From the NCBI GenBank assembly GCA_963828255.1, contig CAWHDZ010000013.1, positions 1 to 51,854 on the forward strand: 51,854 nucleotides of DNA, written 5' to 3'. Below, one piece after another: positions 35,393 to 51,854 of this stretch. Numbering within the stretch: position 1 is the first letter of the stretch; each line of letters begins with the position of its first letter. Source of the stretch: an uncultured delta proteobacterium (GTDB lineage Bacteria; Myxococcota; Myxococcia; Myxococcales; Anaeromyxobacteraceae). A program made the position numbers.

Positions 35393-38300
35393 TGCGCTGG
35401 CCGTCGTTGAAGTAGGCGGGGACGGTGATCACCGCCTTGGTGACCCTGCGCCCGAAGAAGGCCTCTGCGTCGGCCTTGAGCTCGGCGAGCACGAGCGCGC
35501 TCGCCTCCGGGATGGCGAAGGCGCGGCCGCCCAGCATGACCCGGATGTCGTTCCCCTCCGGCCCGGGGACGAGCTCGTAGGGCAGGACCTTGCGGGCATC
35601 CTCGACCTCCGGCGCTCCCCAGCGGCGGCCGATGAGCCTCTTGACCGCGTAGGCGGTGTTCTCGGCGTTGGTGATGGCCTGCCGCTTGGCCATGTGGCCG
35701 ACGAGCCGCTTGCCGTTCCTGGCCACCGCCACCACCGACGGTGTGAGCGTCTGGCCGGTCCGGCTGGCGATGACCCGGGGCACCCCGTCGATGACGGTGG
35801 CGACCACCGAGTTGGTGGTGCCCAGGTCGATGCCGATGAAGGGCTCGTTCTCGTTCATCTCAGGAAGCTCCAGCGCATCTTGCGGAGGCGATCCCGCGCC
35901 CCGGTGAGTCCGTCGTCCAGCTCCAGGGCGCGCTCCAGCGAGCGCTTGGCCGCGCCGTTGTCCCCCTGGATGGCGAGGACCTCGCCGAGGACCTCGTGGG
36001 CGGTGGCCAGGGTGGGCGCTGCGCGCACGGCGGCCTCGGCGCGCTGGCGGGCCGTCTCCAGGGCGCCCCGCTCGAGGGCGATGCGGGCCACGTAGACCAC
36101 GTAGCGCGGCTCGCCGGGCTCGGCGTCGGCGGCGGCCTCGGCGAGGAGCTGGGCGCGCTCCAGCTCGTGCGTGAGCTCGAAGGCCCGGGCCTTCTCCCAG
36201 AGCTCACGGGCCTTGCCGGAGGAGGCCTTGCGCCGGGCCTGCTCGGCCAGGGCCTTGGCCTCGGTGGCGGCGGGATCGAGCGCGGCGGCGGTGAGGAAAT
36301 CGCGGGCCGCGTCGGCGAAGCGGTCCTCGGCCATGGCCCGGCGGCCCCGGTCGAGGAGCTCGCGGACCCGGGCCACCCGGGAGACCATGGGGTTGTTCCG
36401 CACCAGGCGGGCGCGCCGCTCCTGGGAACGGGCGTCGTTCTCGATCTGGCGGGCCGCAACCCGGGCGACCTCCTCGGGCGGGGCCGTGCGCCTGGCGTAG
36501 GGCGCGCGGGTGGCGTCGGCGGCGAGGACGTCCCGCGCCTCGGTGAGACGCCGGAAGATGCGCTCCAGCCGGCCGCGGAAGGAGCCCAGGCGGCGCCCGG
36601 GATAGCGGTCGGGGTGGAAGACCTTTGCATTCTCGCGGTAGGCGTCCCGGACGGCCTCCACGGGGGCGTTCCAGGGGACGCCGAGAACCTGCCAGTGGGT
36701 CCAGCCGTCCATCGAGGCCACCAGGTAGAGGATCTCGCGCCTGCGTTCGACGTCGATGTCGACGTCCTCGGACAAATCGGCGGGATTGAAGAGGAATCCG
36801 TGGTACCGGTCGGCCTTCACGCCGCCCTCCCCGGGATTGGTCCCGGCGGTCACCCAATTTCCCAAATGTAGCCTTCGGGCATCTCGTGGGTCAACGCCAG
36901 GGCCGGTCACGGAGGCGCGAGGAGGAACTCGAGGAGTGCCTTCTGGGCGTGGAGCCGGTTCTCTGCCTCGTCGAAGACGGCGGACTGGGGCCCTTCCAGC
37001 ACCTCCTCCTCGATCTCCTCCCCCCGATGGGCGGGGAGGCAGTGGAGGACGATGGCGGCCGGATCGGCGAGCGCCATCCCCTTGCGATCGACGATGTAGT
37101 CGCGGAACGCCCTCCGGCGCTCCTCGACCTCGGCCTCCTGCCCCATGCTGGCCCAGACGTCGGTGTTCACGACGTGTGCACCCCGCATGGCCTCGGCGGG
37201 GCTCGCCGCGACGCGCACCTTGCCCCCGGCGCGCCGCAGGAGCTCGGGGTCGGGGCCGTAGCCCGGCGGGCAGGCCACGCGCAGCTCGAACCCGAGGAGG
37301 ATGGCGGCCTCGAGCCAGCTGTTGGCCATGTTGTTGCCGTCGCCCACCCAGGCCACCACGAGCTCGCCGCGCGAGACCCGGTCCTGCCCCAGGCGCTCGG
37401 CGACGGTCATGAGATCGGCCAGCACCTGGCAGGGGTGGGAGGCGTCGGTGAGGGCGTTCACCACCGGGACGGTGGCCCAGCGGGCCATGTCCTCCAGCTT
37501 GGCGTGCGCGAAGGTCCTCACCACCAGCGCGTCGAGGTAGCGGGAGAGCACGCGGGCGGTGTCGCGGATGGGCTCCCCGCGGCCGAGCTGCATGTCGCGC
37601 GGGGAGAGCATCATCTCCGAGGCGCCCAGCTGGGAGCAGGCCACCGCGAAGGAGACCCGGGTGCGGGTGGAGGCCTTCTCGAAGACCAGCCCCACCGCCC
37701 GGCCGGCCAGCGGGTGCGGCCCCCGCTTCCCGATGAGCTTCCACTCGGCGGCGCGCTCCAGCAGGTCGAGGAGCTCGGCCCGGGAGAGGTCGGTCAGGCG
37801 AAGCAGGTCGCGCTTGGTCGCCGCAGGGGCGGTCATGCAACCGCCGGCGCGGCGGAGATGGCGGAGGCGAGCAGGGCCACGCCCTGGTCGGCCTCGGCCC
37901 CGGTGAGGATCAGGGCCGGGGCCAGCCGGATGACGTCGTCGCCGATGGCGTTCACCAGCAGTCCACGCTCCCGGGCCGCCAGCACGGAGCGATCGTGGAG
38001 CATCTCCTCGTCGAACCCCGAGTGCCCGAACCGCCCGGCGGCGATCACTTGTACGCGGAGCCCCTTCGGCGGCCCGGCCCACGCGACGGGGAAGGTGCCT
38101 TCGAAAAGGAAGGGGCTGTCGCACTTCGCGCTCCCGCGCAGCAGCCCCGCGGGCAGCAAGTAGATGCGAAGCCCGCGCCCCCTGTAGCTGAGCGAATCCT
38201 CGAACTCGACGACCCGGGCCTCGAGCTCGGACTCGCACGGGAACGTCGCCCGGCCGCGCACCCGGATCGCATCCCCACTCGGCGCGCCCTCGGGCAGGAA

Positions 38301-50300: not shown

Positions 50301-51854
50301 CGGGGTCGGCCTCGAGCAGGGCGTAGATCTTCTCGATGCGTTGCGGAGTCGTCCCCCCGGACCCCCTCGGGGGTGCTCGGCTTGGCGCGAAGCTCGTTCC
50401 GGAGCCTGGTGAGATGGTCGAGCTCCTCGGCCTGGGCTTTACGGGTGAGCGCGCGAGCGCTCTCGGCTTGGCTCTGGAGGAGCGGGTTGACGGCGAGCGC
50501 GAGGTTGCGTCGCTCGATGCCGGCCTCGTTCACGGGGTACGGGTTGGCGCCCATGTTGGCACCCACCCAGGGACCCTGGACCGCGGCACCGATCGCGGGC
50601 TCCTGGAAGCCGGCCCCCACGAAGATCGGGGGTTCGGCCGCCGCGGCGCCCGCGGCAATGTTGTAGGCGTCGTGGTGGTTGCCGAACTCTGCGACGCGGG
50701 TTGCGCCCGCGAGGGAGACCTGGCGCGCAAGCAGCGCCACGCGACTCGCCTCCTGGAAGCGCTGCGGGCGTTGCGAGGAGGTGAGGAGGAAGGCCGGAGA
50801 TCGGCGAGCGCTGCGGTGGCCCTGTCCACCTTCTCCTTGAAGGTCGGGTCCACGTCCGTCGTGACTCGTTGGTTGGCGCGAGCGGCACGGTTCGCAAGCG
50901 TCATTTCCCGCGCGATTCCGGCACCCCGATCCATGGCGTTCACGGCTGCCACCCGCGCACGTTGTGCTCCGGCTTCGCGCGGCACGCCGCGCACTGGCAG
51001 TCGTGGGTGTAGGCCCGGACGCAAGCCTTCTCTCGGAACTGGGTCGCGGCCTCCCGCAGGGCCTCGCTCCGGATCTTGCCGAGGGCCTGCATGTCCGGCG
51101 AGACCTGGGCGTAGGCGCGATCGATGGACTCGGCCATCTTGTCGAGCTCGGCCGCGAAGGTGGAGAGAGGTCCGGCAGGCTGTGGGGGTGACTGCCGAGC
51201 GACCTCCGAGGTAGGGAGCGCCACAGGGGTCGCCCCGACCATGGCGACGATCTCCCCTGTGAGCACGAGGAGGTTGACGTCGCCCTCGTACGTGGAGAGG
51301 CGCGTCCGGATCTGGGCAAGGACTGCCTCGGCACGCTCGGCGCGTACTTTCCAGTGGTCGCCCTCGACCCGCTCGACGCCGAGCACCACGTACTCTCTGG
51401 GCACCCCGAACTGGCCGCCCGGTGTGAGGTAGGTGACCCGCACGCGAATCTTGCGGATGGTGTACTCGCCGGGAAGGCTCTCGCCAGCACGACGCCTGCA
51501 AAGGGCGCAGATCTTGGAGGACACCTCCCCAGGGCGTCGACGGAGGGTCTCATCATCACCCTCGAACACGCACGACCCCTCGTGCGCCGGCCGCCACTCC
51601 CGGAGGAGCAGCGTATCGCCGACAGTGAAGCCCCGATCGGCGCGCCGGACCTCGTAGCGCTTGAGCCCATCGAGGATCGCCTGAAAAGGGACGGGCCACG
51701 TCTTCAACTCGTGCTCCATGGTCACCCCTTCTTCTTGGTGTCGTGCTGGACGATGGTGATGAGATTCTCGGTAGAGGCGCGCGTTCTCCTCACGGTTCGC
51801 CAGGAAGTCGCTGGCGGCGAGGTTGCGGATGATGGTGACGATGCGCAGGCGTAT

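Follow-up and report, generated by a model that had tools for sequence, protein, structure and literature searches.

The window, by which we mean the whole 51,854-nt stretch analysed here, is contig C13 of genome G000 in full. It is host-like up to position 37986 and carries foreign, viral DNA from 37987 to the contig end at 51854, where the segment (13,868 nt, minus strand) remains open, in agreement with an earlier note on this DNA. Identity to relatives stops at 37986, no long match to the segment exists elsewhere in G000, and none of 91 other genomes of the family matches it, short NUDIX-type or chance matches aside, so its reported absence from relatives holds on a wider sample. The insert has a codon usage distinct from that of the host, at a distance of 3.47 (of 500 sets of host genes, 1 lies that far out), and its tetranucleotide correlation of 0.63 falls inside the host range (median 0.75, lowest 0.17 in 292 windows), so that the latter values do not separate host from non-host DNA. 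Spacer-like perfect matches to the insert were absent from the 91 family genomes, with three candidates per genome scored.

Directly beside the insert lie the last ~50 codons of the host argD gene (37833–37986, minus strand; Aminotran_3 match). The 5′ part of argD lies at the end of contig C12, and the two halves are contiguous in all nine of the relatives' loci examined, which bears out the earlier statement on relatives. The next-best argD matches in G000 are only 32–36% identical. Contig C12 does end at the junction, overlapping the host part of C13 by 3 nt (37984–37986, minus strand); this overlap is not an att-like repeat, and no 14-nt word of the junction recurs in the insert. On the viral side, an ORF (37987–38450, minus strand) breaks off at the junction and continues in frame as the C-terminal part of argD, with no intervening stop and the same high-GC3 phase on both sides, giving the fusion protein P0073.

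The other genes of the insert are on the minus strand with one exception. A region encoding a membrane-anchored protein (38953–39983) has an N-terminal hydrophobic segment and a switch of frame near 39344 that suggests a frameshift. It is followed by two Pro-rich N-anchored proteins, one of 158 aa (39980–40456) with an identical protein on a separate 122-kb contig and one of 263 aa (40460–41251) with a repeated helical domain and a relationship to family F17 of other loci; by a small protein that appears, by eye, to be split by a frameshift near 41490 (41311–41716); and by a 184-aa Pro-rich N-anchored paralogue of the protein at 40460–41251 (41738–42292), again identical on the 122-kb contig. 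Pro-rich membrane-anchored proteins were thus rightly recognized before: four proteins are N-terminally anchored, three of them with 12–17% Pro. Next come F2, a predicted transglutaminase-like or cysteine-protease-like enzyme (42335–42883); F0, a single jelly-roll protein and candidate major capsid protein (43118–43792; domain ~96–224); and F1, a conserved Gly/Ala-rich, moderately hydrophobic protein that may reside in an inner membrane (43936–44418). The one plus-strand gene (44574–45359) encodes a 261-aa phrog_19005 protein with papain-like Cys/His motifs noted by eye and no Pfam or PDB match. Beyond it lie a 613-aa protein without a family match (45634–47475); a NUDIX hydrolase (47709–48608; E 3e-17), on whose NUDIX domain the sole 'portal' PHROG match falls; a membrane protein frameshifted in the assembly near 48802 (48623–48993), to which the intact 123-aa P0096 maps in two frames; a protein frameshifted near 49356 (48997–50000), to which P0091 of the 122-kb contig maps in two frames at 97–100% identity; and an ASCH/DUF3850 protein (50940–51725). 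The Walker A motif is absent from all six frames of the insert, consistent with the earlier report of no ATPase P-loop.

The single jelly-roll fold proposed for F0 was borne out by modeling and fold searches. A model built from a 48-row alignment (pLDDT 75.6; 99 residues at 90 or above) has as its top matches the capsid proteins of SPV1 (Z 7.8, rmsd 2.9, 116 residues aligned), HCIV-1 (7.7, 3.0, 109), and HHIV-2 (7.7, 5.3, 111), followed by PHM (Z 7.3) and GOLD (7.1) folds, all tied within 1 and all with middling Z values below 8. The same model gives 6.4 for PRD1 P3 and 6.6 for P23-77 VP17; together with the values for SPV1 and HHIV-2, these differ from the scores quoted earlier, and the viral scores are higher than the 5.4–5.6 previously given for an alignment-based model. 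A single-sequence model ranked PHM first, a BFVD search with F0 gave no clear match and placed SPV1 VP4 at rank 31, and an F0 profile matched no solved capsid among PDB sequences. In a prediction with three copies of F0, the copies bind one another head to tail, with an ipSAE of 0.62 vs 0.02 for the best control. This is a mark that 20 of 30 solved pairs and 1 of 23 monomers attain, in a calibration that extends neither to three copies nor to our own alignment. The contacts agree to at least 84% with a pLDDT of at least 81, and the conserved residues P130, Q131, F134, P142, S143, and P171 fall in the predicted interface. A hydrophobic-hydrophobic-Gly motif occurs 86 times in the N-terminal extensions of 45 F0 homologues, vs 23.6 ± 4.3 times in shuffles, a contrast to be read in light of the motif having been picked after viewing the alignment and the sequences being related. 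The motif, absent from the window's own F0, is a candidate cleavage site.

A transglutaminase-like label had earlier been attached by eye, and the Cys-His-Asp triad (C84-H132-D144) is indeed found in F2 and is invariant in all 21 aligned proteins, as expected for a predicted enzyme of this kind. Four of the 21 have a Pfam Transglut_core match below the cut-off (best E 0.0014), the Atlas neighbours of F2 belong to that family and carry Uroviricota as taxon labels, and PDB sequences yielded weak matches to LapG-type cysteine proteases only (E 0.32 and 0.84). In three F2 relatives, intein-like inserts (weak Pfam matches) sit just before the catalytic Cys, a position which we take to suggest a putative essential active site.

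A search of 1.84 billion representatives with F0 returned 15 other proteins, of which 14 were aligned and one low-complexity match was dropped, and an F0 profile search returned 40 proteins; a single-protein homologue search found the query only, and viral-contig scans with the window protein or with alignment A2 gave no match. Scans recovered 56 metagenome loci, one IMG/VR contig, and one MAG contig, to which the F2 alignment added two IMG/VR contigs; our own gene caller predicted 538 proteins. These loci share a strictly ordered three-gene core of hydrophobic F1, single jelly-roll F0, and Cys-His-Asp F2, with F1 directly upstream of F0 in 27 of the 37 loci with room for it; on the downstream side, 25 of 36 loci have F2. 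Jelly-roll calls are in tandem in 12 of the 56 loci, and two loci had no call; the assembled part of the window has one copy. Among 137 representative proteins of the metagenome loci there are matches to endolysin, tail-fibre-like, and glycosyltransferase families, one match to an integrase, and none to capsid, portal, or terminase, and a RadA-like ATPase occurs in just two loci and in the Myxococcota genome G185.

The relative G427 is complete at 29,914 nt with a 97-nt terminal repeat, and encodes the gene triad along with peptidoglycan-binding, transglycosylase, and spike-like proteins; no head, portal, or terminase family was matched by the 38 ORFs scanned (picked from 92 listed), and its two six-frame Walker A matches both lie outside called genes. 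G041, at 194,181 nt and 88% complete, combines the triad with 39 tRNAs, a PF03175 polymerase, and helicases. The 63.7-kb contig G042:C46 looks viral along its whole length (94 of 123 proteins), and extra jelly-roll paralogues are scattered in both G041 and G042. Viral proteins identical or near-identical to those of the insert lie on separate contigs of 122,134, 20,876, and 4,303 nt, and the largest of these tells against the 17–19 kb genome size suggested before. A literature search, mostly of open-access main texts without supplements, found no description of such a virus group.

We conclude that 37987–51854 truly comes from a tailless bacterial virus not described before, the shell of which is apparently built from a single jelly-roll protein, and that its position inside argD is most likely an assembly error and not a true insertion. 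Of the earlier proposal, the undescribed tailless group, the jelly-roll capsid candidate, the transglutaminase-like enzyme, the membrane-anchored proteins, and a plausible link to Myxococcota stand, and the provirus in argD and the small genome are not supported.

The insertion is disfavoured because the break lies within a viral gene, in frame, at a 3-nt microhomology, and is seen from one side. No att duplication is present on the assembled side, no integrase or recombinase occurs among the 21 ORFs of the assembled, incomplete insert, and G000 contains no second junction. A natural unfused form of the junction ORF was not found among proteins of 112–359 aa, and the junction-side DNA pattern had no match in a scan of viral contigs. 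Long-read metagenome assemblers are described (bioRxiv 10.1101/2025.04.22.649783) as producing chimeras that join unrelated genomes, paths backed by one or few reads, and unsupported indels. The window would resemble these documented chimeras, for which read clipping is the diagnostic, in bringing unrelated genomes together in one contig. That the assembly is a long-read one is read from its contig ends, which overlap one another by 2.5–21 kb; the insert is about as long as one such overlap. Two indel errors are confirmed in the insert, namely the frameshifts near 49356 and 48802 relative to copies on other contigs, and ~22.6 kb of flanking host DNA has no single-base uncompensated indel relative to the related genome G010. 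Against a chimera, the 122-kb contig carries frameshifts too and may itself include host flanks. A codon-model frameshift scan flagged 3 sites in the 14-kb insert vs 43 in 160 kb of host and was not used as evidence, since host sites are flagged as often per kb. Low coverage is in any case usual at contig ends, which counts against the argument for a chimera.

If intact argD molecules exist, a fork in the assembly graph is expected at the exact base of the junction, where C12 stops, with intact argD and virus both leading into the same host sequence, and we infer such a fork; a true insertion would extend C12 into the other end of the virus. All told, the argD junction is most likely a long-read chimera. 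A real integration, whether as a true provirus in argD of this Myxococcota strain or as an illegitimate integration in a sub-population, is unlikely, even though C12 stops no more than 3 nt from the junction, an integrase could sit in the missing part, an integrase lies near the module in one metagenome locus, and the module is known inside an integrated element in the phylum. Such an event would have broken both partners in mid-gene with no duplication, would have destroyed the sole close argD copy, and has left no second junction in G000. The fusion protein P0073, moreover, is recorded on this contig alone, vs five contigs, up to 363 kb, for the identical neighbouring host protein ArgF.

The integrated element just mentioned is in G185, the one genome among 400 others of the phylum that has the module, which corrects the earlier finding of absence from the phylum. 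Its intact module of ~6.3 kb (C2:1,452,553–1,458,900) lies within a 46-kb island that has a 57-nt tRNA-Gly duplication at its bounds, a tyrosine integrase, restriction and toxin-like cargo, and no replication gene adjacent to the module; the island may be composite. It has the look of real integration, from which the window differs. The module in this island makes Myxococcota a plausible host phylum, and no more than plausible, as infection of G000 by the window's virus is left unproven by it; the window itself, being partial, error-bearing, and probably mis-joined, represents the group poorly and is no proof of host or of argD integration.

Bacterial DNA viruses of large size are generally taken to have tails. 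On a rival reading, F0 would be an accessory or decoration protein in a large tailed phage, the head genes of which are lacking or have diverged beyond detection. The NUDIX and ASCH proteins, tRNAs, and glycosyltransferases are typical of large phages; further jelly-roll copies are dispersed over G041 and G042, and the Z values are middling; tail-fibre-like PHROGs occur in some loci, and the Atlas labels point to Uroviricota. In G041, a HerA-domain protein ~100 kb from the module is labelled 'terminase large subunit' by PHROGs (E 1.7e-13), and there is one 'virion structural protein' match. Apart from the 'portal' label on the NUDIX domain, comparison by HMM matched no capsid or portal family, and the one 'terminase' match falls on the HerA domain; no HK97 capsid or portal was matched among 143 of the 252 called proteins of G041. 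Since the complete G427 is devoid of head, portal, and terminase matches in the ORFs scanned, its long ORFs are explained by the module, and the strictly ordered triad constitutes a conserved core, we regard a tailed phage as very improbable. Another possibility is that plasmids or islands carry the module for a particle that is non-viral or domesticated, such as a gene-transfer or vesicle-like one, as its intact state amid the G185 cargo with no adjacent replication gene and the lack of a packaging motor might indicate. This seems very unlikely given that most copies are on virus-like contigs, that IMG/VR lists three of them as viruses, one of these with terminal repeats, and that only that single phylum genome has it.

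We therefore favour the view that the insert is probably 13.9 kb from an independent bacterial dsDNA virus without a tail, likely with a much larger genome, and that it was joined chimerically to host DNA at the microhomology, argD itself probably being intact. In such a virus, F0 would form ring capsomers of an icosahedral shell, as its fold and predicted self-binding suggest, and F1 and the N-anchored Pro-rich proteins, in which hydrophobic segments are seen, would line and bridge an inner lipid membrane. F2 may mature the particle, most likely by cutting acidic N-terminal extensions at the repeated hydrophobic-hydrophobic-Gly sites, or alternatively by cross-linking. As a conserved packaging ATPase is absent, shell assembly might proceed around condensed DNA, a route proposed for particles of the SPV1 type, and the transglycosylase and peptidoglycan-binding proteins of relatives could act in entry or exit. 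More broadly, we lean slightly toward a widespread, unnamed tailless lineage with a vertical single jelly-roll, an inner membrane, transglutaminase-like maturation, and motor-less packaging, ranging from 30 kb to ~200 kb, with Myxococcota among its hosts, sometimes integrated at tRNA genes, and a bacterial sister of the portogloboviruses.

The likeness to Portogloboviridae (SPV1; PMC8459092, PMC8812541) lies in the candidate single jelly-roll shell protein, with VP4 as the top fold match, in the inner membrane that we propose here, and in the absence of a packaging ATPase, Walker A being missing from the insert and from the called genes of the complete G427. The portoglobovirus capsid protein forms hexamers; F0 has SPV1 as its top fold match at the score given above and is predicted to self-bind in three copies. 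Portoglobovirus particles also have a lipid membrane inside the shell and a nucleoprotein core, and on that side hydrophobic segments are what the proteins here show. Portogloboviridae have circular ~20-kb genomes and infect Sulfolobales, whereas the virus here has a bacterial context, high GC, a 29.9-kb complete relative, and contigs of 122 kb and 194 kb; there is no sequence similarity, and the conserved transglutaminase-like enzyme and the cell-wall enzymes set it apart. Halopanivirales (Helvetiavirae, realm Singelaviria; HCIV-1, HHIV-2, P23-77; PMC12714852, PMC8812541) provide the second- and third-ranked folds, and their two-capsid-protein layout recalls the tandem jelly-roll calls, with the window's single copy as the other arrangement. 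They differ in their FtsK-HerA ATPase (PMC12714852), which neither G427 nor, across the scanned loci, the module contains, and in having much smaller genomes than the group here. The Odin group (PMC5894146) likewise encodes a conserved non-polar protein of small size immediately ahead of its capsid gene and has no packaging ATPase, but its capsids are double jelly-rolls and its genomes 7–11 kb. Prokaryotic double jelly-roll viruses have genomes under 20 kb, and an SPV1-like single-capsid-protein virus has been placed at the root of Helvetiavirae, both according to PMC8812541.

If our reading is true, a bacterial lineage of this build reaches up to ~200 kb, and motor-less packaging and the origins of Singelaviria become testable, with G185 as the host lead for the group. 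Outside this assembly, four sequencing runs from three studies contain 0.22–0.62 of the words from 36500–46400 (16 of 20 runs, with a share below 0.2, were set aside); as the host share of that region is only 15%, viral words are present in independent data.

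The complete jelly-roll module, whose core is a hydrophobic protein, the single jelly-roll protein that is the candidate capsid protein and a transglutaminase-like protein, occurs together with a terminal repeat in the complete 29.9-kb virus genome G427 (L108, L109). A 522-aa protein of the same genome (L109:1289-2857), for which there was no Pfam match, resembles a rolling-circle initiator by eye. In the Myxococcota genome G185, a 46-kb island with a 57-nt tRNA-Gly duplication (C2:1,444,123-1,490,331; L099-L102) carries the module intact, with a RadA-like ATPase and a transglycosylase, as well as genes for a tyrosine integrase and ParB, type I restriction genes, an RHS/Tc-like gene and a cytolysin-domain gene.

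Additional conserved module families, F3, F4 and F5, are present in the related loci L021, L024, L029, L046, L051 and L052; the break accounts for their absence from the window. Their products include a helical protein of ~290 aa and beta-rich proteins of ~250 aa, the latter being possible vertex proteins. At three loci, intein-like (Hint) inserts, with Pfam matches under the cut-off, immediately precede the catalytic Cys of the transglutaminase-like protein (L012:10528-11322, L013:1502-2722 and L054:11598-12449).

The bin from which the window derives (G000) has a contamination of 6.6%, and long stretches are duplicated at 83–91% identity among its contigs C6/C10/C4/C37, C23/C40 and C29/C31; because of these duplications, we conclude that a second strain or species is mixed into it. 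Stretches of C34 (~138-180 kb) and C38 (~1-41 kb) are strongly atypical in tetranucleotide composition (correlation 0.17–0.52), and could represent mis-joins or additional mobile elements.

Contigs of 378 and 450 kb carry the jelly-roll homologues P0053/P0058, and are either very large viruses or more integrated copies. The 194-kb virus G041 encodes a major-vault-protein homologue, a TROVE/Ro60 protein, RtcB, an RNA ligase, ~38 tRNA genes clustered as one block and a polymerase of the PF03175 type (loci L072:838-3546, L073:13947-15539, L071:8805-9950 and L072:16989-L073:5789).
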